Program-made: the position numbers and the translations under genes
Shown here: piece after piece, positions 2,091 through 29,784 of the stretch
Layout: each line of letters begins with the position of its first letter
Numbering within the stretch: the stretch's first letter is position 1
From: Escherichia phage Lw1
Sequence record: KC801932
Reading direction: 5' to 3' (one strand)
Length of the DNA stretch: 64,000 nt
Notes under the pieces: model-generated
The model's database searches: none
The model's input: only the letters and a program-made list of their open reading frames with translations
Told to the model about the DNA's origin: nothing

Positions 2091-2558
2091 TTAGCCGTCA
2101 TAACCGCCACCGCATTTAACATCACCTTCAATGAACAGTTCGCGGTTGTCTCTCAAAAGATTGTATTTCTTTTCGAGTTCCGGCCCGAATGCGTCAGCGT
2201 CTTCATAATAGCTATAATTATAACAACCGCATTCATCATCCCATTCAGGATCATCACCGCATTCGTTGAAATGTACCACTTTGATATCATCAACGCCCAG
2301 TTCTTTCATTTTATTCCAGATATACCGGATGTCAACGCTATGATAACTGAATGCTTCAAGGGTGATACTATCACCATCAATTTGAGGAATACCCCATTTA
2401 GAACGTTGGTCATCGGTAATGATATCCAGTAAAGATTCTACGTTTTCATGTCCGTAAATCTTCGCGACCTCTTCCTCTTTACCAGGACGAACAAGCCCGA
2501 TCCCGATAATAAAGCTACTGCTTGAACTGTTACTTACAAAACCAGAACGGATCTTCAT
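2091..2558 (-). CDS. hypothetical protein with N-terminal leader MKIRSGFVSNSSSSSFI (paralog A, 155 aa)
   Basis: first 17 aa identical to ORF 5968-6480, remainder unrelated; ATGA start/stop overlap with upstream membrane-protein gene. Confidence 0.6.
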   Translation of the reverse strand: MKIRSGFVSNSSSSSFIIGIGLVRPGKEEEVAKIYGHENVESLLDIITDDQRSKWGIPQIDGDSITLEAFSYHSVDIRYIWNKMKELGVDDIKVVHFNECGDDPEWDDECGCYNYSYYEDADAFGPELEKKYNLLRDNRELFIEGDVKCGGGYDG

Positions 2559-3360: not shown

Positions 3361-3400
3361 ATTAAATTCCTCAATATGCCCCCTTTCGGGGGCTATTTCA

Positions 3401-5620
3401 TTACAGTTTAACTTCTTTTTCTTCCAGAACGATTTCGCAATCGAATGTTGCATCTTTCCAGAACTCATGCGGGATGATTTTGTCTGCTTTAACCGATACT
3501 TTGGTTTCTTCAAAATCCAGATCCGCAAACCAGGCGTGGCCTACAACGATACCGTACATTACACGGCTCAGGCGCTTGTTCAGTGCGCGTACTTCGTTGA
3601 TGGTTGCCTTTGTTTCTTTATCAAGGTACTCGATTACCTTATCCTTGTCAAGCGCTGCGAGTTCAGCTTTAACAGCATCGTAAGCCCACAGGATGATCAG
3701 GTCGCCGTTGTTCAGTTTCTTCTTACCTTCGGCACGTTTCGCAACAGTTGCCGCTACAGCAGGAAGGGAGGAAACACCCTTGATTTTCAGATTCAGTTCT
3801 TTCGACATATAAACATCAGTCGAATCGGTACGGGTTACTTTCGGGGAGAATCCATAATCACGAATACCCTGTTCAGATAACCATTCACCAGCGGCTTCAC
3901 CGTATTTCTGTTTCAGACCTTCGGCATTACGTAAACCGATCGCGTCGTCACGGAAGAACTTCATCACCTTCTGACGACCTTTCAGGATTTCCAGACGGAT
4001 AGAGTCGTTTACATACTCTTTACCGGAGATCCCGCGAGTCATCGCACGGTTAACCAGAGGCAGACTTGTAAAGTCAACCAGTACCGACATGCGGTCTTCA
4101 CCGATTTTTGCCAGCGGCTTGATAGTCAAACCAGAAGCGCGAAGGTTTTTCAGTGTCGGAATATCGGTTTCCAGTGGCAGAACCTTAACGTTTACGATCC
4201 CATCTTTAACGATGGTGAAGTTACGCACCTGCTTAGTTTCGATTTTTTCCGGCAGTCCCAGTTCTTTCTGTTTGCTTTCTGGGATAGTTACGTAACCTTG
4301 CAGATCCGTGTTAATGGAAATGTTAGGACGTGAACTGTTGCCGACCAGATGTTTAACCGATACTTTGGTTGTTGTCTGGGTAAATTTCGGTGTCCATATT
4401 TCGTGCGTTACCATTTGTGCGGCTAATGCTTTGCGTTCTTCCGGTGTTTTCGCATTTGCGATCTGTTCTGACAGTTGATCCAGAGTATCATCTTCTTTCT
4501 GTACTGTCTGACGGCCTGTACGGTTGTACGCCCAGTGTTCAGAAGACAGGTCGATCACTGTGTCAGTTTCTGCCAGCAGTTCGAGAGCATCAACCAGAGT
4601 GAATGCGTTTTCGTCTGGAACCATGTTGTAATCAACACCTTCAATCAGACGTTTACCCGCATCAACTACCGCTTCCGCGATCAGGTCTTTGGCGTTGGAA
4701 TAATCCTGCTTAGTAAAGCAGTTATCGTAAGCCTTAATCAGACGAACGTCACCGACTTTTTTCAGCACTTTCCATGCCAGATCAGGGTTCATGGTATGAA
4801 GTGCATGATACAGAACCACGTACAGAACCTGTTCACCTTCCATCGTAGCCGGATCAAATCCGTCGATATCGTTGATTGCGTTTTCACCCAGCGCCCAGAT
4901 GTTTTTGATGTGTTCTGGAACCAGTACAACACCATTTGCAGCGTTCAGGACATACACGCGCCCTTCGTCCAGATAGATCGCATGGGTAGCGTCACCGACC
5001 TTGACTTCAACACGCGGTGATGTTTGCGCGGTGATGATTTCAGCAAATGCTGGCTCGTATGCGTCGAAACCTTCAACGAATTTATGCAATGCGTTGGTTG
5101 CTTCTGCCATTTTTTCCAGCAGCGGACGGTTTACATAATAACCGTATTCCAAGAACGCGATGCTGTTAAAAGTCAGCGGGAGAACCGCACACGCTTTCAG
5201 GATGTCATCGGTACGCCAGCAGTTATCATAACCATCCGTAAGGAAGATCAGGCTGTTCAGATTGCCGTTTTCGGATTGCAGATCAGTTGCGATTTCCGCA
5301 GCCAGGTTCAGAGGTTCAACGAAACCAGTACAACCAGTGGGTTTCAGATAGCGGTCGATCGCGGTGCAGATGTTAGTCAGATCGGATACGTTGCTAACCT
5401 TCTCACCACGGAACACAGTACCGTAATCGCCTTTGCTGGAGAAGTACAGAATCGAAACTGTATCATCCTGTTTAACCAGACTCGCCAGGTTTGCTTTCAG
5501 ATGTTTACGGATTTTCGGGAGTTCGTTATACATAGAACCGGAAACGTCACACACGAAAACGTGGTTGGTCGGAGTCGGCTTCGATACTGCGTTTTTGAAT
5601 TCGATATTTGTAATTGACAT
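3401..5620 (-). CDS. von Willebrand factor A (vWA) domain protein, 739 aa
   Basis: N-terminal MIDAS-type motif VFVCDVSGSM ... LYFSS ... FLTDG (DxSxS..T..D); long C-terminal region of unknown function. Confidence 0.6.
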   Translation of the reverse strand: MSITNIEFKNAVSKPTPTNHVFVCDVSGSMYNELPKIRKHLKANLASLVKQDDTVSILYFSSKGDYGTVFRGEKVSNVSDLTNICTAIDRYLKPTGCTGFVEPLNLAAEIATDLQSENGNLNSLIFLTDGYDNCWRTDDILKACAVLPLTFNSIAFLEYGYYVNRPLLEKMAEATNALHKFVEGFDAYEPAFAEIITAQTSPRVEVKVGDATHAIYLDEGRVYVLNAANGVVLVPEHIKNIWALGENAINDIDGFDPATMEGEQVLYVVLYHALHTMNPDLAWKVLKKVGDVRLIKAYDNCFTKQDYSNAKDLIAEAVVDAGKRLIEGVDYNMVPDENAFTLVDALELLAETDTVIDLSSEHWAYNRTGRQTVQKEDDTLDQLSEQIANAKTPEERKALAAQMVTHEIWTPKFTQTTTKVSVKHLVGNSSRPNISINTDLQGYVTIPESKQKELGLPEKIETKQVRNFTIVKDGIVNVKVLPLETDIPTLKNLRASGLTIKPLAKIGEDRMSVLVDFTSLPLVNRAMTRGISGKEYVNDSIRLEILKGRQKVMKFFRDDAIGLRNAEGLKQKYGEAAGEWLSEQGIRDYGFSPKVTRTDSTDVYMSKELNLKIKGVSSLPAVAATVAKRAEGKKKLNNGDLIILWAYDAVKAELAALDKDKVIEYLDKETKATINEVRALNKRLSRVMYGIVVGHAWFADLDFEETKVSVKADKIIPHEFWKDATFDCEIVLEEKEVKL

Positions 5621-5629
5621 TTAAATTTC

Positions 5630-5968
5630 TCAGTATTTGGTTGTTTTATGTGCGTTTAAAATGCTTTGGATTTTTTCGGAAATCGTTTGCTGGTCTGGTT
5701 CACATCCCAACTTACCGCCAATCACCTTATAAAAATCTTCAACAGAGCTTACGTTAAAATCCGACATATCGAAACCTAAAGAATACATATGTGGATTTGT
5801 AAATTTGTAAACACCTACATCATACTCGTTAAGGTCGAAACGTTCAAGATATTTCTTCAAAGAGAATAAATCGAACGGTAGCGGAAGATGTTGTTCAATC
5901 GATACAGGTTCCCCCAGCTTATGCGCTTTTAGCGTTGCCGCTTTCGTGTACGTCATTTCTTCTTTCAT
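5630..5968 (-). CDS. hypothetical protein (112 aa)
   Basis: ORF; ATGA overlap with upstream gene. Confidence 0.5.
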   Translation of the reverse strand: MKEEMTYTKAATLKAHKLGEPVSIEQHLPLPFDLFSLKKYLERFDLNEYDVGVYKFTNPHMYSLGFDMSDFNVSSVEDFYKVIGGKLGCEPDQQTISEKIQSILNAHKTTKY

Positions 5969-6480
5969 CAGTGGTGACTCTTTGATGTATGTTCAAGGTT
6001 ACGGAAGATGTCGCCGTGTTCCATTTGTGTTCCAACAGGTCCGCATTCATCCGAGTAAGTAAACTCGTAGATAAACACACCGTTCTGATTACCGTACTTC
6101 ATGTTGTACTCTTCATACAACCACATCTTGATCAGAGCGTCTTTCTCTTCGGTTTCTAAATCGTACCAATCCCGACCATCATATGCAAGCGCAATTTGAG
6201 GATTTGAACGATAACGGGTTTCCGCGCTATCTTCGGTTTCCCAATCATAACGCTTATCGTCATAAAACGATTCAAAGCTGTTACCCATATGACCGCCCAA
6301 ATCACGGTGTACATGGTTGATCACTTCTTCGGATGTCAGCGACGGGGTATAGTAACCGCACGTAGGATGACAGTCACCCATCATTTCGCGCAGGTTGTCG
6401 ATATTAGTCGGATCTTTCGGGAACCGGACAATGAAACTACTTGATGAGCTATTGCTCACAAAACCAGAACGGATTTTCAT
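5968..6480 (-). CDS. hypothetical protein with N-terminal leader MKIRSGFVSNSSSSSFI (paralog B, 170 aa)
   Basis: same 17-aa N-terminus as 2091-2558, encoded with synonymous differences; ATGA overlap with upstream gene. Confidence 0.6.
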   Translation of the reverse strand: MKIRSGFVSNSSSSSFIVRFPKDPTNIDNLREMMGDCHPTCGYYTPSLTSEEVINHVHRDLGGHMGNSFESFYDDKRYDWETEDSAETRYRSNPQIALAYDGRDWYDLETEEKDALIKMWLYEEYNMKYGNQNGVFIYEFTYSDECGPVGTQMEHGDIFRNLEHTSKSHH

Positions 6481-7981: not shown

Positions 7982-8236
7982 TTAAAAAAGATGCGTTAAA
8001 TGTCCTGCATTGCTGGGGTATTCGACGTAATCACCACGGAAGATGTTCAAATCTTTATCAAATTTAAACCCATGTCCTTGAACATCTTCATGACGAGATA
8101 CATAAGATACTCCATACTTTTCAAGGTCTTCCATATACATTTCGGTGATTCTCTTCGCTTTATCCAATCCGCGTCCCTCAAATCGAGAACGTCGATAATT
8201 CGCAAGAAGAAACGCATATAATTCTTCGTATGTCAT
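7982..8236 (-). CDS. hypothetical protein (84 aa)
   Basis: ORF; overlaps upstream methyltransferase gene end. Confidence 0.45.
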   Translation of the reverse strand: MTYEELYAFLLANYRRSRFEGRGLDKAKRITEMYMEDLEKYGVSYVSRHEDVQGHGFKFDKDLNIFRGDYVEYPSNAGHLTHLF

Positions 8237-9144
8237 TTCAATACCTTTCTGATTTGTTTCGCTATGGCTTCGATCACGGGTATTGAAACTGAATTTCCCG
8301 CTTGACGATATGCCTGTTTTTTACTATCCGGTATGATAAATGAATCAGGGAATCCCTGCAAACGAAAACACTCACGGGGAGTAAGTCTTCTGGGGTTCTT
8401 TCCTTCCTGCAACACCAGACATTGAACGCCGTCCTTGTAATACTGCTGGGTTATCGTCCCAGTGTGCGTAGAATCGCTTGTGACGGCCTGATAACCAAAC
8501 CCCTTACCATTCGCCTTGTTTCGTTCCTTACGCTCTCTAAAGCCTTTCCACGCGTTATCTGATAGGGTGTATGAATCATCAGCATCTTCGAGGATATCGC
8601 CCACTCTCGTAGGGGTACGCGGAGGAACAGGAAACGAAAAGAATACATCATCCAGGAAGCAAACAATAAACACACGTTCACGTCTTTGTGGTAGTCCGAA
8701 ATCTTTTGTATTCAGTCGTTGATAGAATACGTTATATCCTTCGGCCTCCAGAAGCCCGTAAATCGTTTTAAACGTCTTCCCCTTGTCATGGGTTAGTAGT
8801 TCAGGCACGTTCTCAAAGAACAGCACACGGGGCTTTTTAGCGCGTATGATGCGGAGTATTTCAAAGAACACAGTACCGCGAACATCATCGAACCCCAGTT
8901 TTAATCCTGCTTTACTGAATGCCTGACACGGGAACCCAGCCAACAGGATATCGTGATCAGGTACTTCGGTTTCTTTTATCTGGAACAGATCTCCCTGTAG
9001 GTTATCATTGCCCCAGTTTTCGATATATGTTTGCTGTGCGAACTTGTCGATTTCAGACGTTAAAAGGCATTCGACACCGCCGAACGCCTTATCAAATCCT
9101 AATCGAACCCCGCCCACACCAGCACAGAGGTCAATTATTTTCAT
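8233..9144 (-). CDS. DNA (cytosine-5)-methyltransferase, Dcm-like
   Basis: all canonical C5-MTase motifs in order: I DLCAGVGG, IV GFPCQAFS, VI FENVPEL, VIII QRRERVF, IX RLTPRECFRLQGFPDSF, X GNSVSIPV. Confidence 0.9.
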   Translation of the reverse strand: MKIIDLCAGVGGVRLGFDKAFGGVECLLTSEIDKFAQQTYIENWGNDNLQGDLFQIKETEVPDHDILLAGFPCQAFSKAGLKLGFDDVRGTVFFEILRIIRAKKPRVLFFENVPELLTHDKGKTFKTIYGLLEAEGYNVFYQRLNTKDFGLPQRRERVFIVCFLDDVFFSFPVPPRTPTRVGDILEDADDSYTLSDNAWKGFRERKERNKANGKGFGYQAVTSDSTHTGTITQQYYKDGVQCLVLQEGKNPRRLTPRECFRLQGFPDSFIIPDSKKQAYRQAGNSVSIPVIEAIAKQIRKVLK

Positions 9145-9401
9145 ACGTCAAAATCAATCTCGTCAATTTTGTATGAGTTTTCGTCAATGTCCGCCCATAG
9201 GGTTACATTGACGTGTTTACTATCTTCGTACAGATTACGCCCGTTCATCCCGCCCGTGTAATTGCTTTCGGTACGTTCAGTAACTTCCAGTCGGAGGCTA
9301 TCGCGCATGATCTGAACAACAGCCTGTTCCAGCGTAACCGCGTCTGGGTTTTTGGTATCGCCCAGTACAACGTCTTTAACGTTCAAAATAACATCAGTCA
9401 T
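9141..9401 (-). CDS. hypothetical protein (86 aa)
   Basis: ORF. Confidence 0.45.
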   Translation of the reverse strand: MTDVILNVKDVVLGDTKNPDAVTLEQAVVQIMRDSLRLEVTERTESNYTGGMNGRNLYEDSKHVNVTLWADIDENSYKIDEIDFDV

Positions 9402-9685
9402 TAGTAAAATTTCCCATAGGTGTTGAAATTTACGTGCGTCGGGCTTGCTTCTTCAACACGAATTTCATAATCATAATCCTCATTTGTTACGGAACGATCA
9501 TGTTTGATGACATCAACGATATATACCCGGAAGAATGCATGATACAGCGCATCGCGGATCTTTTCAGCAAGTACCGGAGGCTCACTATACAGGTTAATCA
9601 TATCGGAAACAATATCCTCTACGCGAGGAATATCGCGTTTATCAATATAACCAGTATATAAATTTACTTCTTTCATTAATGCCAC
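9401..9685 (-). CDS. hypothetical protein (94 aa)
   Basis: ORF. Confidence 0.45.
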   Translation of the reverse strand: MALMKEVNLYTGYIDKRDIPRVEDIVSDMINLYSEPPVLAEKIRDALYHAFFRVYIVDVIKHDRSVTNEDYDYEIRVEEASPTHVNFNTYGKFY

Positions 9686-9921
9686 TCCGTTTCGATACCG
9701 TATTTGTATGCGTCAATCCCCAGAGGGGTGATCAACAGACACATATCAGTATTTTCGTTTGGCGACTTAAACGCCGCAGTTGCGTAACCTTTTTCAATCA
9801 GGGCATTACGCCCTGATTTACTGGGTACGTCATCGAAATCCAATGTTAACACCTGTGATGCATATCTGTAAAGTTTATACAGCACGTCAATTTCAGCACC
9901 GGATAATTTCGGGAATGTCAT
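9676..9921 (-). CDS. hypothetical protein (81 aa)
   Basis: ORF. Confidence 0.45.
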   Translation of the reverse strand: MTFPKLSGAEIDVLYKLYRYASQVLTLDFDDVPSKSGRNALIEKGYATAAFKSPNENTDMCLLITPLGIDAYKYGIETEWH

Positions 9922-10916
9922 TTGTAGTACCCCACAACGTGATCGCGATAAACGCGTTCGATAAAGTCGTTCCAGAACTCGCGATCAACCTCTTTCGGAT
10001 AATTAGAGACTGCTGCAAGGCGTTCGACTTCACCCATGATTTCTTCCAGCTTTTCCTGGACAAAAGTGAAAGGTTTCGTTCCGGCTTTAACTTCTTTTAA
10101 AAGCTGGCTCTCTTCCAGAGGATATACGATATCACCATGTTTGTAAATGCTGATAAGCTGTAAGCCTCCGCGCAATGCGTGAGAAAGTGCTTTCCAGTCG
10201 ATCCCGTTGTTGGCTTCTGCCTGTCTTGCTCGTTCACCATATTCGTCCCAGAGTTTATACACTGACTTTTTCATTTCAGCTACGGTGATCGTAGACTGGA
10301 ATTTGCGCCCCAGCACTTCATAGAAGTCCTGACAACCGGATTTCAGGGTTTTGTCTGTAGTGAATCGACAGAACTCATTGGTCGGGAATGTGTGAGAGAC
10401 TTCACCAACTTTGATGTGATGTGTTGCGTCACCCAGATTAGACGGCATACGAACAATGCGGCTATTTGGTGTATCCTGCAACACATCGTATACTTCACGC
10501 AGTGCAGCCAGGCGAGAACCTTTAACGCCATACTTCGCCGCTTGCTTACGAACATAACCAAACAGGCCAGTTAGTTCCGTAGTGTAGAAACGTGAACGGT
10601 TAGCGCGGATATACTGCCAGATTTCGGAGTTAGCGATCATCTTACTATCATCAGCATGAAGCATATCGAGCGCTACGGTATCACCATCACACGCAAGGCT
10701 AATGAACTTAGGCAGACTATACAACTGACGGTCGATGTCGTCTACGGTGTTCTTAGAGCTTTTATCGCCCGTGCTCGTGTCGATAGTCTTCGGGGCTTTA
10801 CCCAGTAAGATATCGCGTGGATGCGGGAGAAAGATCCCTTTATAATCTTTGTCGCTTGTCGGGGTGTTCAGTCCATACAGGTGAGAACCGAACACAGTTT
10901 CCATTACAATTTTCAT
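9918..10916 (-). CDS. Pol-beta superfamily nucleotidyltransferase (332 aa)
   Basis: N-terminal GS-x9-[DE]h[DE] signature FGSHLYGLNTPTSDKDYKGIF with third acidic residue about 60 aa downstream (ALDMLHADD); helical C-terminal half. Confidence 0.55.
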   Translation of the reverse strand: MKIVMETVFGSHLYGLNTPTSDKDYKGIFLPHPRDILLGKAPKTIDTSTGDKSSKNTVDDIDRQLYSLPKFISLACDGDTVALDMLHADDSKMIANSEIWQYIRANRSRFYTTELTGLFGYVRKQAAKYGVKGSRLAALREVYDVLQDTPNSRIVRMPSNLGDATHHIKVGEVSHTFPTNEFCRFTTDKTLKSGCQDFYEVLGRKFQSTITVAEMKKSVYKLWDEYGERARQAEANNGIDWKALSHALRGGLQLISIYKHGDIVYPLEESQLLKEVKAGTKPFTFVQEKLEEIMGEVERLAAVSNYPKEVDREFWNDFIERVYRDHVVGYYK

Positions 10917-11311
10917 AGTTCAATACCTAATGTTTTTGCGATATCTTTCAGTTGAAATGTAGCGATTTCGGGAACAACAACATAATGAGTACCGAACTCT
11001 TTTCGTATTTTTTCGCACAGTTCAGTACGATACTGAATTTCATTGTATACAGTTTCGCTGCGATACATATAAAATCCACCCCATCCACCACCAGAACCCG
11101 AAGTCAACCCGCACTTACGATCGACTTTCTCAACGTTCCAGTCTTTCGCGTCAGCATCTTTGTTGGTGGATGCGTACAAGTATTGACGAGCAACCTTGAT
11201 TACGTGAAACACGCGAGGATTTTCGACTCTGCGATTATTGTAATTTCTTGTACCCGGATCGTAAATGGTATCACCCACTTTCACATCAGTTAAATCTTTC
11301 AAATTATTCAT
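10913..11311 (-). CDS. hypothetical protein (132 aa, Gly-rich GSGGGWGG)
   Basis: ORF; overlaps neighbours by 4 nt. Confidence 0.45.
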   Translation of the reverse strand: MNNLKDLTDVKVGDTIYDPGTRNYNNRRVENPRVFHVIKVARQYLYASTNKDADAKDWNVEKVDRKCGLTSGSGGGWGGFYMYRSETVYNEIQYRTELCEKIRKEFGTHYVVVPEIATFQLKDIAKTLGIEL

Positions 11312-11559
11312 TTCATTTTCCAGCAGTTTTTCTTTTCACAGTAGAATAACGGGAGTTTAGACAGCACCGGAGTAACCACATCTTCGCCCGTTTTCGTATT
11401 ATGTGTCAGTTCAACAGTCAACGACTGACCAGAAGCAGATTTCACAATATCCAGTTCTAGGATCTCACGATTACCCTTTGTATTGATTTCCGCAACATAG
11501 TAATCATGCCCGTTGATATCGACAACATCGCCCATCAGAATGCTTCTGGTATGTTTCAT
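11308..11559 (-). CDS. hypothetical protein (83 aa)
   Basis: ORF. Confidence 0.45.
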   Translation of the reverse strand: MKHTRSILMGDVVDINGHDYYVAEINTKGNREILELDIVKSASGQSLTVELTHNTKTGEDVVTPVLSKLPLFYCEKKNCWKMK

Positions 11560-12131
11560 TTGAATGTCACCTTCGTATACAGCGAGGACATCAAAGAACG
11601 GTCAACACCGTCAATAACAATCATACCCTGGTACGCGTCTTTGTCTTTGCGGGAGTACATACGGCACAGCAGCGAACCATCTTTTGCGATGTATTCAACC
11701 TGGTATGTGCGACGTTCTGTTTTCAGAATATCACCAATAGCAACCGGACGTTCTACCTTTTCACGAGTATTGAGCGCGAACGATAATACATTGTCACCAT
11801 CACAAACGACCGCTGTATCTTTCGCGGATACATCGCGACTGTCAATGCTATGGATGCTCACGGAATAAACACTATCGGAAATCAACATATGTGCATCACC
11901 GGAACCTACTTTAGCGATGATAGTTGATGCGGTCTTAGTACGCGTATCGGAAGCAAACACATACACAGTAATCGGTACACCACTTTGAGTGTCTTTCGCA
12001 ACAGATTGAACAGTGAACGATTCTTTTAACCCACGAGATCGTGAGTGATTGATATAAACACTATCACCAGGGATCAGAGCGCGACGGACAACTTTGGTTT
12101 CTTCGGTTTTAATAAATGCAGTTTTGTTCAT
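11556..12131 (-). CDS. hypothetical protein (191 aa)
   Basis: ORF. Confidence 0.45.
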   Translation of the reverse strand: MNKTAFIKTEETKVVRRALIPGDSVYINHSRSRGLKESFTVQSVAKDTQSGVPITVYVFASDTRTKTASTIIAKVGSGDAHMLISDSVYSVSIHSIDSRDVSAKDTAVVCDGDNVLSFALNTREKVERPVAIGDILKTERRTYQVEYIAKDGSLLCRMYSRKDKDAYQGMIVIDGVDRSLMSSLYTKVTFK

Positions 12132-23811: not shown

Positions 23812-24075
23812 TTATTCGAAACGAATCGTGCTATTTTTGAAAAACATTCCAGAGCACACAGCACCAGCGATCGGTTTACCGTTTACGCCCGTAGCCGTAA
23901 ATCCGGTTGCGTATGTATCCTTTTCAGAACAGGAAAACCAGCTATATCCTGTGAACTGAATATTCGAATACCCTTGCGCTTCCAGGATACGCTGTGCTTC
24001 TCGTTCGTCGGTACAGCTTGATTGCAATAGAACGAGAACCACAACCAGTAAGACACATCCAATAACTTTAAACAT
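23812..24075 (-). CDS. putative lipoprotein (87 aa)
   Basis: hydrophobic signal ending LLQSSC (lipobox-like). Confidence 0.45.
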   Translation of the reverse strand: MFKVIGCVLLVVVLVLLQSSCTDEREAQRILEAQGYSNIQFTGYSWFSCSEKDTYATGFTATGVNGKPIAGAVCSGMFFKNSTIRFE

Positions 24076-24524: not shown

Positions 24525-24880
24525 ACAATACCCTCTTCTTTGAGCACTTCCCAAATAAGTTTATCCAGGTGCATTAGGTTCCACATAACAGAGTCATACG
24601 AACCCAGCGAGCGGGAGTAAATTACACCCCATGAACGATATGCTTTTTGAAACTCTTCCGCGCTGTTTGTATCGCACGGCATATCATCACCAGAAGCGAT
24701 CAGCAGTTTAAACACCATCAGGCTGTTGAGCAGTTTTGAACTTGCGTCCTGTTCTCTCAGCTTAGACCAATACCGTTCGATAATCGCTTTTGCTTTCGGT
24801 TCAGTAATACGCCCATTACTACAACGTTCACGATACACATACATCAGTTCATCGAGTATTTCTGTCATAACACACCCCAT
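24521..24880 (-). CDS. hypothetical protein (119 aa)
   Basis: ORF. Confidence 0.45.
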   Translation of the reverse strand: MGCVMTEILDELMYVYRERCSNGRITEPKAKAIIERYWSKLREQDASSKLLNSLMVFKLLIASGDDMPCDTNSAEEFQKAYRSWGVIYSRSLGSYDSVMWNLMHLDKLIWEVLKEEGIV

Positions 24881-25191
24881 TTACTTTTGATTCTGTTGCA
24901 TTCTTCCGCACACTCTTTTTCCGCAAGGATTTTGCGAACAACCGCGTTTCTGATTTTCCAGAGATAATCGATCATCTGCATATCTTCGGGAGTGTGATAA
25001 CCTTTCATATCGCATTCAAATACGATAGCATCGCGTTCTGACATTGCCATTATCGCGGTAGCCGAACAAATGGTCATCCCACTATATTTTTCAATCAACG
25101 ATTCCAGTGTACGCTTTTCTGCCGGAATGTCAACAGTTATCGGAACAGGACGGATTCTTGTAGTCGAATCGTCGAAGGATTGATAAATCAT
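24865..25191 (-). CDS. hypothetical protein (108 aa)
   Basis: ORF. Confidence 0.45.
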   Translation of the reverse strand: MIYQSFDDSTTRIRPVPITVDIPAEKRTLESLIEKYSGMTICSATAIMAMSERDAIVFECDMKGYHTPEDMQMIDYLWKIRNAVVRKILAEKECAEECNRIKSKWGVL

Positions 25192-26342
25192 TTTAACTCC
25201 ACTGCATAAACATCGGTTTCGGGGGCTTTGTGTACGCGCATATCTTTACCACATACCGCATAAGCCGGACAGTTGCGACAACCGTTATGATCCGTGTTGC
25301 CTGTCAGTTCTTTACGGAACTGTTTTGTTTTCGGGTGTTCCCAGATATCTTTGATAAAATCATCGGCTTCAAGGACATTCAAACCTTCACCCCAGCCACC
25401 TTCAACCCAACGTTCGGTAAACGAGCAAGGGAAGAATTCGCCTTTTTCGTTGATGTAAGAGCTAAACATCGTCGCTTCACAATCTTCCGCATACTGCTTG
25501 TATTGTTCGAAGTTCGGGTGTCCCTCCATCGCTTCAACGAAAGCTGGGGCTGAACAGCTATCGAATCCAAATCCTACACCAGAATCAAGGCAGTATTCAA
25601 CAAGTTTTTTGTATTGTTCGCGGGTGACTGTATCCCAGTTCTTACCACGTCCCTTTTGTTTCAGACCCAGGAACACGATCGCGTTGACTTGTTTCAGGCG
25701 CGGATCATTACGCACAGCATCAACAACGGTAAACGCATCATCATAGGTCTTTGAGCTAACCATGAAATGTAGGTTGATTTGCTGTTGTCCTGCTTCTGCC
25801 AGGTTTGCGACGGAATCGAAAGCAACATCGAAGCCAGCATGTTTATAAACCGATACTGCAACAGCCCCAGCAACCGCCGCTAAACGCGCTGCAACGTCTT
25901 TTGATACATCAGCAATGGTAAGGTTCGGTACAATGCCTTTAGAACGCGCATAGGCCATCATATCGAACATATCAGGGTTTGTTTGTCCCTGTGCATCAGC
26001 ACCGAGTGCGCATTGGGTTAACCAGGGCATTTTATCAATGATGGATTTGAAAGAAGCAAGATCCATATTGTAGCCGTTCGGGTTATTGGACTTGTAACAG
26101 AAACCACACAGCTTACCAGCGGGGCCATTACATTTAGTTGTGATCTCGATATCGAGGATAAAAGGAAAATGACTATAAATAGGATCGTCAGCAGGAGTTT
26201 TGCCCCAAGTCATCATATGACCTGTTTTCATATCAAAATTAAAATTAACCTCTTCGGAACGATAGATTTTCTTTCCTTTCGCTTCCAGTAGAAGTCCAAC
26301 AGGCGTTTTGATATGTTTGGCGTTTACTTTAACGTGTCTCAT
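25188..26342 (-). CDS. Fe-S protein, radical-SAM-like with C-terminal SPASM/twitch-like Cys motif
   Basis: ITTKCNGPAGKLCGFCY (Cx7Cx2C, rSAM-like TxxCN..C.FCY context) and C-terminal CRNCPAYAVC (Cx2Cx5C); start set at MRHVKV with GAGGT RBS. Confidence 0.45.
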   Translation of the reverse strand: MRHVKVNAKHIKTPVGLLLEAKGKKIYRSEEVNFNFDMKTGHMMTWGKTPADDPIYSHFPFILDIEITTKCNGPAGKLCGFCYKSNNPNGYNMDLASFKSIIDKMPWLTQCALGADAQGQTNPDMFDMMAYARSKGIVPNLTIADVSKDVAARLAAVAGAVAVSVYKHAGFDVAFDSVANLAEAGQQQINLHFMVSSKTYDDAFTVVDAVRNDPRLKQVNAIVFLGLKQKGRGKNWDTVTREQYKKLVEYCLDSGVGFGFDSCSAPAFVEAMEGHPNFEQYKQYAEDCEATMFSSYINEKGEFFPCSFTERWVEGGWGEGLNVLEADDFIKDIWEHPKTKQFRKELTGNTDHNGCRNCPAYAVCGKDMRVHKAPETDVYAVELK

Positions 26343-26354
26343 AGGAACCTCATA

Positions 26355-27083
26355 ATGTATTACGTTTACAGAATCACAAATGTTATAGAGAACAAGCACT
26401 ATTATGGATCAAGAAAACCTAAAAAGTCAATGCTTGCTTCCGACGATTTAGGGAAACACTATTTCAGTAGTTCCCGTGATAGTCATTTCATCCAAGATCA
26501 GAAGGAAAATCCAGGACACTACAAATATAAAGTAATCGTATCGGGGTTGTCAAGGGAAAAGGCGATGAAACTTGAGAAAAGGTTACACGAAATCTACAAG
26601 GTGGACACGAACCCACATTTTTATAACAAACACATACACAACAGCGTTGATTTTTCATGTACACCAGAAACAGGAAAGAAGATTTCACAAACACACCAGA
26701 AATATGCAGCAAAGAAAATTTCAGAATCACATAAAAGGCGATTCAAGGAAGGTATAGCATCACATAAAGGAGAGAACAACCCACGATACAACGATCATCG
26801 GTCTTATGAAGAGATACACGGAGAAGAAAAAGCGGAGACTATACGCAAAGCACAATCTGAATCAAGAAGAGGAAAAGGCAATTCCCGCGCGGTTACGTGG
26901 AAATTTACTTCCCCTAATGGAGAAGAATTTTTAGTTGAAGGAGAATGTAAAAAGTTTTGCAAAGACAGAAATATTTCCATGCGTAAACTGAAAACCTATC
27001 TGGGTGAAGTCATCACAACATGCGATAAACCCTACTATATCTCTAAGAATACCGTAGGATGGAAATTAGAAAAGATTATTTGA
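26355..27083 (+). CDS. GIY-YIG homing endonuclease (Seg-like)
   Basis: N-terminal MYYVYRITN...HYYGS (GIY..YIG), basic C-terminal DNA-binding region; lone plus-strand gene among minus-strand genes. Confidence 0.7.
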   Translation: MYYVYRITNVIENKHYYGSRKPKKSMLASDDLGKHYFSSSRDSHFIQDQKENPGHYKYKVIVSGLSREKAMKLEKRLHEIYKVDTNPHFYNKHIHNSVDFSCTPETGKKISQTHQKYAAKKISESHKRRFKEGIASHKGENNPRYNDHRSYEEIHGEEKAETIRKAQSESRRGKGNSRAVTWKFTSPNGEEFLVEGECKKFCKDRNISMRKLKTYLGEVITTCDKPYYISKNTVGWKLEKII

Positions 27084-27330
27084 ATCTTCTTTTACGTTCG
27101 TCAGCCAATTCTTGTTTGTACGTTTTAATGTACTTCCCGTTAAGAATTCGAAGTTGCTGGAAAACTTTGTTGCACAAAGCACGTTTCGCTTTGTATTCTG
27201 GTGTATTGCGGATTGATTCGATCGTCATACCCATTTCGTTTTTAGGGTAAGCGCTCAACTCCCTGCCGATCTCTCTGTACCAGTTGCTTAACTGGTCACG
27301 CTTTGCTTTGTACTCTTCAAAAGTTAACAT
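27076..27330 (-). CDS. hypothetical protein (84 aa)
   Basis: ORF; degenerate PeSL-like hairpin upstream at 27347-27384. Confidence 0.45.
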   Translation of the reverse strand: MLTFEEYKAKRDQLSNWYREIGRELSAYPKNEMGMTIESIRNTPEYKAKRALCNKVFQQLRILNGKYIKTYKQELADERKRRFK

Positions 27331-27481
27331 AACAATCTCCGGTTTAGTTTCTATGTGTGTAAGGTATCATTACCATACACACAAAGCAAGCTATATTTTC
27401 AAAATTAATCGGAATAATACAAAACAGAACACAGCAGAAAACACCCAACATACAACGAAGAACAACGCGATTCTTTTCAAA

Positions 27482-29186: not shown

Positions 29187-29575
29187 AATTCATATTGTGA
29201 GCGAAGGATAGCGTAAAGGCTACCGATATGGATCGTGTCTACCGGACACTGGAACAGATCCCCGCGCATCATGTTAAACTCGATATCGTTACGTTCAACA
29301 TAGTTGCCGATCATTGATGTCCAGCCCATCACCAGGTTGTAACCATCTTCCGATAACCCATAAGCCAACTTAACCAAGATGCATCGCTTATCAGCCAGTT
29401 CTACGCGCATATGGGTACTGGTATGGGTGACCTTGTTCGGGAATCTGCGAAACATTTTAGTAAGGAGTTTTGCGGTTTCAATATTGAACGCCAGTTCTTG
29501 ATCCTTACTGGTCTGGTTATCATGACGACGATCCAGATATTTCTTCATTTTCGGATTCAGATTCACATGTTGCAT
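29171..29575 (-). CDS. hypothetical protein (134 aa)
   Basis: ORF. Confidence 0.45.
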   Translation of the reverse strand: MQHVNLNPKMKKYLDRRHDNQTSKDQELAFNIETAKLLTKMFRRFPNKVTHTSTHMRVELADKRCILVKLAYGLSEDGYNLVMGWTSMIGNYVERNDIEFNMMRGDLFQCPVDTIHIGSLYAILRSQYELWDMK

Positions 29576-29784
29576 AATATATCCCTCACAGGTTTATAAC
29601 GTTCTTTTCCAGTGCCGTTGCATGAACTGCATTTTGGCGATCCGTGGTTATCATATCGCCCCGAACCATTACATGCAACACATTTCCGTAATTTCCAGCC
29701 ATACACGAACCGCATGTAATAATCGGTTCGTGCTGCCTTGCGCTCATGGAAGTTCATACTTTGTTGTAAACCTGAACAACCCAC
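29563..29784 (-). CDS. small zinc-finger protein (CVACNGSG ... CSSCNGTG, DnaJ-like CxxCxGxG repeats)
   Basis: two CxxCxGxG motifs; start position uncertain. Confidence 0.4.
   Translation of the reverse strand: MGCSGLQQSMNFHERKAARTDYYMRFVYGWKLRKCVACNGSGRYDNHGSPKCSSCNGTGKERYKPVRDILCNM

Follow-up and report, generated by a model that had tools for sequence, protein, structure and literature searches.

A radical SAM/SPASM-type enzyme of Escherichia phage Lw1, its mobile homing endonuclease neighbour and its genomic link to a family of N-terminally tagged phage proteins

A 64,000-nucleotide stretch from Escherichia phage Lw1 (KC801932), a T4-like phage of the RB16/RB43-Slopekvirus group, carries on its minus strand, at 25188..26342, an open reading frame (ORF) for a 384-residue protein of the radical S-adenosylmethionine (SAM) type with a SPASM/twitch region, which stands back to back with the plus-strand gene of a GIY-YIG-like homing endonuclease. 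Throughout, the whole of this stretch is called the window and positions are given in its numbering. The locus raises two questions, namely what such an enzyme might act upon in a phage and whether the endonuclease has any part in its function. The identity of the pair had been proposed from the DNA letters alone (the original prediction), correctly so, and was already known from the GenBank annotation of relatives, where the gene is labelled 'putative radical SAM protein' in RB16, 'radical SAM superfamily protein, contains SPASM domain' in Miro, and 'SPASM domain-containing protein' or 'Fe-S oxidoreductase' elsewhere. The new result of this analysis is a link, undescribed so far, between this viral radical SAM family and a family of small proteins which share little beyond a 16-residue N-terminal tag, and for which the enzyme may be a maturase. 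The endonuclease, on the other hand, is a selfish passenger and not a functional partner of the enzyme.

As judged from its sequence and its structural model, the product of the minus-strand gene is predicted to be a catalytically active radical SAM enzyme, of the class with a SPASM/twitch region. Both of the cysteine motifs quoted in the original prediction are present: TTKCNGPAGKLCGFCY contains C71, C79 and C82, and CRNCPAYAVC contains C355, C358 and C364. The codons of C71-x7-C79-x2-C82, at 26097..26132 (minus strand), would specify the ligands of the radical-SAM [4Fe-4S] cluster, and across 36 homologues reaching down to 44% identity C71, C79 and the intervening F81 are invariant, with C82 kept in 35 of the 36. 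The auxiliary-cluster (SPASM/twitch) region, at 25251..25556 (minus strand), is marked out by PF13186 and by conservation, and comprises C263, C288-x12-G301-x4-C306 and C355-x2-C358-x5-C364. In the same alignment C263, C288 and C306 are invariant and C358 is at least 90% conserved, while C355 is frequent, not universal, and C364 is confined to close relatives. The C288 to C306 segment matches the SPASM/twitch element CX9-15GX4C; the full seven-Cys SPASM motif is incomplete in the window protein, which has neither a CX3C after its CX2CX5C nor the last Cys. Since the auxiliary cysteines conserved family-wide are only the four at C263, C288, C306 and C358, a single auxiliary cluster of the twitch-like kind is expected, the CX2CX5C of the window protein being a feature of its clade. 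With respect to the first loop, a profile alignment places Cx7Cx2C against the CX3CX2C of BtrN through a four-residue insertion, such that the loop reads as the canonical one enlarged by four residues; among 186 family members the first Cys spacing is x7 in 131, x3 in 20 and from x5 to x15 in the remainder.

The profile matches and the fold point in the same direction. The Pfam SPASM model PF13186 scores 26.3 bits (cutoff 21.5) over residues 289-360, TIGR04085 reaches 25.1, just under its cutoff of 27, the NCBIfam radical SAM/SPASM models are all sub-threshold, with no anSME model among the NCBIfam matches, and the PHROG match is to family 7293, of unknown function. The AF2 model (predicted local distance difference test, pLDDT, 92) shows an all-β N-terminal 60 residues, with strands between residues 9 and 46, and a partial (β/α)6 TIM barrel, and its best structural neighbours are the peptide- and protein-modifying SPASM enzymes SuiB/StrB, SkfB, CteB and PqqE. 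Moreover, a tag-adjacent relative at 26% identity (from the contig here called L210) has the CX3CX2C spacing together with GGG-N-P, and matches the Radical_SAM model PF04055 at 6e-16. The radical-SAM/SPASM-like identity is therefore upheld by the SPASM score above cutoff, the conserved cysteines, the modelled fold and the canonical members of the family, and the two features on which the original prediction had staked itself, conserved Cys and a related fold, are both found, in the 36 homologues and in the partial barrel respectively.

What the enzyme might act upon is suggested by its gene neighbours. ORFs within 6 kb of the radical SAM gene were clustered over 80 viral loci (80 of the 149 radical SAM loci), and, apart from antisense artefacts, the only partner to recur is a set of small proteins sharing the N-terminus M-K-x-R-x-G-F-V-S-N-S-S-S-S-S-F, followed by I, V or C; no other gene family occurs in more than 16 loci. 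With a strict form of this pattern, the 73 radical SAM-centred viral loci that lie outside the window's own lineage yield 221 tag ORFs, distributed over 60 of the loci at one to ten per locus and all on the radical SAM strand, with Met at motif position 1 in 218 of them. A looser pattern adds a few more loci. The reverse scan, in which a degenerate DNA version of the tag pattern was run over viral contigs (at least 120 blocks), agrees in showing adjacent precursor-like genes with a conserved recognition segment: among the matches listed, the radical SAM gene is found in 39 of 106 irregular blocks and in 5 of the 7 that extend 4 kb or more to either side. Every tag in these blocks (97 of 97) is on its strand; 78 are found downstream of the gene and 19 upstream, the median distance being 1 kb. 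Tag-bearing contigs that carry the enzyme gene number at least 61 of 108, a lower bound because 80 of the 149 radical SAM loci were taken in. In an independent sample, tags are present in 12 of 21 genome-collection loci, and three loci chosen before the tag was known (L003, L005 and L007) all carry tags, one with ten tandem copies. Conversely, for four tag proteins taken from the protein database the enzyme is next door in two cases (L208 and L210), is present as a fragment in a third (L209) and is missing from the fourth (L211). A SPASM/twitch enzyme accompanied by many linked genes which share only an N-terminal tail is typical of cassettes in which an enzyme and its substrates are encoded together.

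The tag is conserved as protein. In a set of 416 distinct tag starts, no Ser position lacks any of the six Ser codons, Arg is encoded by both AGR and CGN, and Gly by all four of its codons; because synonymous codons vary freely, both Ser boxes included, selection must act at the protein level, and a DNA or RNA element, whether a recombination or a translation signal, is rejected on the same grounds. Beyond the tag, the protein bodies are unrelated to one another, the 204 distinct proteins falling into 81 clusters by their C-terminal part, with several subfamilies recurring over 10-17 loci. As a class they are acidic (median isoelectric point 4.5) and from 50 to 390 residues in length (median 132). 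An exhaustive search with a hidden Markov model (HMM) gives a family of 23,807 representatives at 50% identity, nearly all of them matched from residue 1. Pfam and NCBIfam searches with 148 tag proteins gave no meaningful match, such that the family is without a Pfam or NCBIfam family, and no structural neighbour was found for it; nor was any description found in the literature of the tag motif or of its pairing with a phage radical SAM enzyme. A few database proteins have two tag matches or a mid-protein tag, which are likely to be gene-calling fusions of tandem tag genes, and genuine tandem-tag proteins may be among them.

The window itself holds two tag genes, both found by motif scan as minus-strand ORFs. 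Tag protein 1 (5968..6480, 170 residues, beginning MKIRSGFVSNSSSSSFIV; PHROG 7397, unknown function) and tag protein 2 (2091..2558, 155 residues, beginning MKIRSGFVSNSSSSSFII and belonging to a C-terminal subfamily that ends ...GGGYDG) are alike in residues 1-19 only; tag protein 1 is put forward as a substrate of the enzyme, which would recognise the tail of both. In the AF2 model of tag protein 1, residues 1-10 form a free tail (pLDDT below 50) and residues 13-20 the first strand of the fold. Over residues 39-147, tag protein 2 also matches PHROG 132, 'head-tail adaptor', at E 3.5e-8; either this label is doubtful or the subfamily ending ...GGGYDG or ...GAGRNG is related to a virion protein.

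The reading preferred here, to which a probability of about 0.6 is given, is that the radical SAM enzyme modifies the tag, in other words that it is a leader-guided protein maturase. Such an enzyme would hold its SAM-binding [4Fe-4S] cluster on C71, C79 and C82 and at least one auxiliary cluster on C263, C288, C306 and C358, and would recognise the flexible, invariant N-terminal tail on otherwise unrelated small acidic phage proteins. A 5'-deoxyadenosyl radical would then abstract a hydrogen within this tail, after which the modification would be installed. The modification would lie in or beside the tag, since the bodies of the tag proteins have nothing in common. Given the run of Ser residues, the affinities with anSME and BtrN and the single auxiliary cluster, oxidation of an alcohol to an aldehyde is a reasonable first guess, whereby the C-β alcohol of Ser would be converted to an aldehyde (Ser to formylglycine) as in dehydrogenations of the anSME/BtrN type. 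A cross-link within F-V-S-N-S is a second option, where the F-V-S triplet would suit a cyclophane-type linkage, and a third would be ether links through the Ser oxygen, as made in peptides that are synthesised on the ribosome and modified after translation (RiPPs). The tag-derived peptide sequence is MKIRSGFVSNSSSSSFIVRF. Overall, the RiPP logic of leader and hypervariable core would here be applied to whole proteins. The original prediction had offered only the general guess of peptide or protein modification, to which gene linkage now adds the tag as a concrete candidate substrate.

Several observations weigh against this reading. On the side of the enzyme, the window protein has no match to PF04055 at E<=1, such that the profile check proposed with the original prediction succeeded for the SPASM model but not for the Radical_SAM one; PDB sequence searches, with the single protein or with the family profile, returned nothing significant save a weak alignment to the twitch domain of BtrN; the usual SAM-binding motif GGE reads GAD; and no leader-binding domain like the RiPP recognition element (RRE) or PqqD is among the Pfam or NCBIfam matches of the enzyme. 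On the side of the tag, there is neither the anSME motif C/S-x-P/A-x-R nor a Cys for thioether chemistry, so that the chemistries named above are candidates. With respect to linkage, the tag genes of the window and its relatives are 19-24 kb from the radical SAM gene rather than adjoining it, being in one early, minus-strand gene block with it; among the matches listed, the radical SAM gene is not recorded for 47 of 108 tag contigs; and about one fifth to two fifths of the radical SAM loci are without a tag within 6-8 kb.

The unmatched PF04055, the GAD in place of GGE and the non-canonical Cx7Cx2C spacing could together be taken as marks of a degenerate pseudo-radical-SAM protein, devoid of catalysis and kept as a scaffold or as a mere landing pad for the endonuclease. 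This is highly improbable. The three cluster cysteines, the aromatic residue before the last of them and the four auxiliary cysteines are conserved down to 26-44% identity, the same family holds members with the canonical spacing, and with no fewer than 1,296 clusters at 90% identity it is evidently under purifying selection.

The separation of enzyme and tags in the window's lineage speaks for a different account, in which the enzyme acts on some other host or phage protein or on a small molecule, and the tag is a sorting, packaging, degradation or assembly signal borne by proteins that are co-regulated, partners or regulators. A hypervariable body with a conserved tag at its N-terminus does recall, by analogy, the internal proteins of T4, and the second half of the tag, SSSFIV, is the first β-strand of the fold, such that its conservation could be partly structural. 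However, a structural strand would not need 16 near-invariant residues, six of them Ser, in front of 81 or more unrelated C-terminal bodies. Moreover, adjacency on the same strand in very different phages, with no third conserved partner, has the look of an enzyme-substrate cassette, and no protease or packaging gene co-occurs at the radical SAM loci. Overall, the signal account is rather unlikely.

The place of the gene within an early, nucleotide-metabolism-rich region of the genome leads to a third account, namely that the enzyme modifies DNA, a nucleotide or RNA, as for example in the 'unknown DNA modification' of slopekviruses, and that the neighbouring tag genes are unrelated accessories. 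In this regard, phage radical SAM enzymes are reported to take part in thymidine hypermodification and 7-deazaguanine pathways (PMC8989533), and KP27-type phages withstand many restriction enzymes, the cause being unexplained (PMC5219037). Yet all slopekviruses carry the gene, KP15, the DNA of which is digestible, and KP27, the DNA of which is resistant, alike, so the gene does not track the resistance phenotype. Nor does any kinase, transferase or other DNA-modification gene recur in the 73 loci, whereas tag genes do, and the best structural neighbours of the enzyme modify peptides and proteins. A nucleic-acid substrate is thus improbable, and modification of the tag by the enzyme remains the preferred reading.

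The enzyme family is viral. The protein is found by tblastn in 171 of 50,697 cultured-phage records, T4 not being among them, in keeping with the original prediction that T4 has no counterpart. The carriers are of Slopekvirus, Pseudotevenvirus or similar groups, with Klebsiella, Enterobacter, Cronobacter, Citrobacter and Escherichia as hosts, and beyond the phages of Enterobacteriaceae are Vibrio phage D479 and one more record. In metagenomic viral contigs the family is widespread in large genomes of 100-550 kb. A search of 185,579 prokaryotic species, one genome each, gave 21 loci only, all on contigs of metagenome-assembled genomes with scattered taxonomic labels or on a 178-kb phage contig that contaminates an assembly of Flagellimonas, from which the viral nature of the family follows.

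Some of the more distant loci merit separate mention. On L210 (a contig of GCA_009772375.1), a CX3CX2C radical SAM/SPASM gene directly follows tag ORFs of 53 and 78 residues (9600-11530), and genes for an IS66 transposase, a tRNA synthetase and a biotin ligase are found on the same contig. Either this is DNA of a huge phage, or the cassette of enzyme and tags may here exist in a cellular form. On L211, a 346-residue protein with no Pfam match and no similarity to the radical SAM family is found amid five tag genes (3394-4434) and may be an alternative partner of tag proteins; a Gad1-like protein is encoded on the same contig. On L005, a Vibrio-like contig, the enzyme gene and one tag gene are followed by genes for a 538-residue protein and an ARPP-1/ARPP-2 domain protein (9193-11826), with SIR2 nearby.

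As for the endonuclease, the two divergent genes of the window are separated by very little DNA. The radical SAM gene starts at an ATG at 26342, preceded on the minus strand by GAGG, the upstream GTG at 26399 given by an ORF-listing extension being rejected as its start; at the other end, its stop codon shares the sequence ATGA with the start of the following gene (24865..25191). The original prediction had the minus-strand ORF right and its length, 385 residues, one too long; it likewise put 13 bp between the two starts, where the actual gap is a spacer of 12 bp (26343..26354). Within this spacer the two Shine-Dalgarno-like sequences, AGGA on the plus strand and GAGG on the minus strand, overlap each other, and in Miro two ribosome-binding sites are marked by the annotators at the same place. 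The divergently paired plus-strand ORF that had been recognised by MYYVYRITN...YYGS is at 26355..27083 and encodes 242 residues; its 3' end overlaps a converging gene of 84 residues (27076..27330, minus strand). This product matches PHROG 314, 'homing endonuclease', at 2e-24, and gives no match to the Pfam GIY-YIG model PF01541. Its membership of the GIY-YIG class would be transitive, through a full-length homologue in Aeromonas phage phiA8-29 (25% identity, E 9e-6) which does match PF01541 at 3e-8. The N-terminal Y3-V-Y5 ... Y16-Y-G18 (YVY-x10-YYG) aligns with this homologue and with an approximate sequence of I-TevI. From PHROG 314, the motif and its polymorphism, the gene is classed as a Seg-like, free-standing homing endonuclease gene (HEG).

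Comparison of the locus in relatives with and without the endonuclease, Miro and RB16 respectively, gives a sharp mosaic at 26151..27083. Over the region 25000-27400 the window is some 93-94% identical to the Klebsiella phages CPRSA, CPRSB and Miro and some 93% to RB16; one protein encoded in the window has 100% identity to gp116 of Lw1. Within the mosaic segment, the first 64 codons of the radical SAM gene (26151..26342, minus strand, 192 nt, encoding the β-rich N-terminal domain) are in a three-way alignment 99.0% identical to Miro and 50.8% to RB16; the corresponding values are 100% and 33% for the spacer (12 positions) and 98.6% and 48.3% (mostly gaps) for the HEG, in the place of which RB16 has an unrelated ORF of 68 residues. 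In the remainder of the radical SAM gene, by comparison, identity is 83-93% to Miro and 88-95% to RB16, and in the downstream gene 92% to both, the flanks overall being 83-98% identical to the two phages. In other words, the lineages agree at 99% of positions over a segment of 933 bp, and to its sides they differ by 7-17%. On these identities, the HEG, the spacer and the first 64 codons of the enzyme gene are evidently a mobile cassette that has spread recently between phage lineages. At its left junction, as placed by sliding identity, is a perfect 12-bp palindrome, CTCGATATCGAG (26145..26156), which encodes the invariant LDIE(I/V) motif and might be a site of recombination or cleavage.

The HEG is sporadic, being found in 18 phage records at 91-98% protein identity, or 17-18 of the 171 genomes that carry the radical SAM gene. 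A 934-bp difference at the same cassette is on record between phages Rpl1 and Kpn35c1, and the polymorphism of HEG presence at the radical SAM gene is itself already described (PMC9960720). In KLB21 the cassette-type radical SAM allele is present and no more than 32 codons of the HEG are left. A HEG of 45% identity adjoins a radical SAM homologue (57% identity) in Vibrio phage D479, in convergent orientation, at its 3' end, with a tag gene near the pair. Given the cassette mosaic, the sporadic presence and the recurrence beside the enzyme gene in D479, the HEG lineage appears to home to the conserved radical SAM gene, here dragging its N-terminal domain along. The suggestion that the endonuclease inserted beside, or mobilises, this gene is borne out by these distributions.

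Inside the HEG gene are two minus-strand matches to sigma-70-like promoters aimed at the radical SAM gene, at 26553-26524 (TTGACA-18-TATATT, 11/12) and at 26430-26401 (TTGACT-18-CATAAT, 10/12), both being consensus matches only; the cassette may thereby bring its own promoter for the gene whose 5' end it replaces. A motif scan also finds a T4 late-promoter-like octamer, TATAAATA (26174..26181, plus strand), inside the cassette and 174 nt upstream of the HEG start. It was rejected as a late promoter of the HEG, the octamer not being enriched (6 copies in the window, 3.25 expected), and may be there by chance.

The surroundings of the radical SAM gene vary among relatives in further ways. RB16 has an additional gene of 99 residues, p155 (L002 4189-4488), between the radical SAM gene and the downstream gene, which is absent from the window, and Miro has yet another, unrelated gene downstream. 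In the records of CPRSA/CPRSB, RB43 (NC_007023) and vB_CsaM_leB the radical SAM and/or HEG genes are in 2-4 pieces; since the radical SAM gene is intact in the resequenced RB43 (HE981739), some of these broken genes are probably sequencing errors and not pseudogenes.

Other minus-strand genes of the window may be noted. Between the two tag genes, 3401-5620 encodes a 739-residue protein with an N-terminal von Willebrand A (VWA) domain (Pfam 3e-6; PHROG 2426, unknown function), and a faint VWA_2 protein is also encoded near the radical SAM gene in the unrelated jumbo-phage locus L007. With PADLOC, neither the enzyme nor any of the tag, VWA and HEG proteins gave a match. At 8233-9144 is an ORF like those of C5 cytosine DNA methyltransferases, with FPCQAFS and ENVPELL, labelled cytosine-specific methyltransferase in Miro; at 29563-29784 a 73-residue protein with two CxxCxGxG repeats resembling a DnaJ-type zinc finger (Miro label 'DnaJ cysteine-rich domain'); and at 23812-24075 an 87-residue homologue of RB16 gp39.1, the signal peptide of which (…LLQSSC) resembles that of a lipoprotein.

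Through the link to the tag, an orphan family of phage enzymes (no fewer than 1,296 clusters at 90% identity) acquires a specific and testable candidate substrate, and the link gives a dark-matter protein family (some 23,800 clusters at 50% identity) a first functional handle. Cultured phages of Klebsiella, Enterobacter and E. coli that hold both enzyme and tags are available in Miro, RB16, RB43 and Lw1. If true, whole proteins would here undergo a leader-guided radical modification that is virus-wide, the first of its kind, and the link could expose new radical SAM chemistry on a Ser-rich motif as well as provide a short transferable tag of possible biotechnological use. More broadly, the chances are about even that large phages, T4-like and jumbo, possess an undescribed maturation system in which one radical SAM/twitch enzyme serves a tag on some 24,000 clusters (50% identity), perhaps arming or addressing diversifying effectors of host takeover or counter-defence. 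The HEG cassette, for its part, is a clean natural case of a free-standing endonuclease carrying part of its target gene between phage genera.

When set beside known systems, the HEG is most like the Seg-type GIY-YIG endonucleases of T4 (SegA-G) and I-TevI, with which it shares an N-terminal GIY-YIG-like motif and a C-terminal DNA-binding part. As with SegA-G, its gene lies between genes and not in an intron, is present or absent among relatives and is bordered by diverged sequence towards the conserved target, as co-conversion or target-site immunity would be expected to produce. It differs in that its sequence is too diverged for the Pfam GIY-YIG model, in that it is divergent and 12 bp from the start of its neighbour, and in that the cassette swaps the first 64 codons of that neighbour for an allele that is 50% different.

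With respect to the enzyme and its putative substrates, the broader logic has analogues. In prochlorosin-type systems one promiscuous enzyme serves many precursors, of which the leader is conserved and the cores are hypervariable, and the internal proteins of T4 carry a capsid-targeting sequence. Both resemble the tag proteins in placing a constant N-terminal address on variable cargo, many to one; the chemistry and the enzymes are different, and the likeness is one of analogy only. Alongside the RiPP maturases, anSME with its sulfatases is the nearest parallel. From anSME/AtsB and BtrN the system departs in that the tag is without C/S-x-P/A-x-R, the enzyme has no NCBIfam anSME match, no sulfatase is encoded nearby and about four auxiliary cysteines are conserved, as against the seven or eight of anSME.

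The closest comparison is with the radical SAM-SPASM maturases of RiPPs (SuiB/StrB, SkfB, CteB and PqqE). There are clear differences: the putative substrates here are folded proteins of 50-390 residues (median 132), where those of RiPP enzymes are short peptides; the conserved segment is 16 residues from Met1 and is itself the only possible common site of modification; and the enzyme, confined to viruses, has an enlarged Cys1-Cys2 loop and no detected RRE/PqqD domain. Nevertheless, these maturases are the best structural matches of the phage enzyme, and they share with it the arrangement of one enzyme gene beside one to ten same-strand, substrate-like genes of which the N-terminus is conserved and the rest hypervariable. 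By this analogy, the pairing of enzyme and tag is, on balance, probably a form of leader-guided radical SAM-SPASM maturation.

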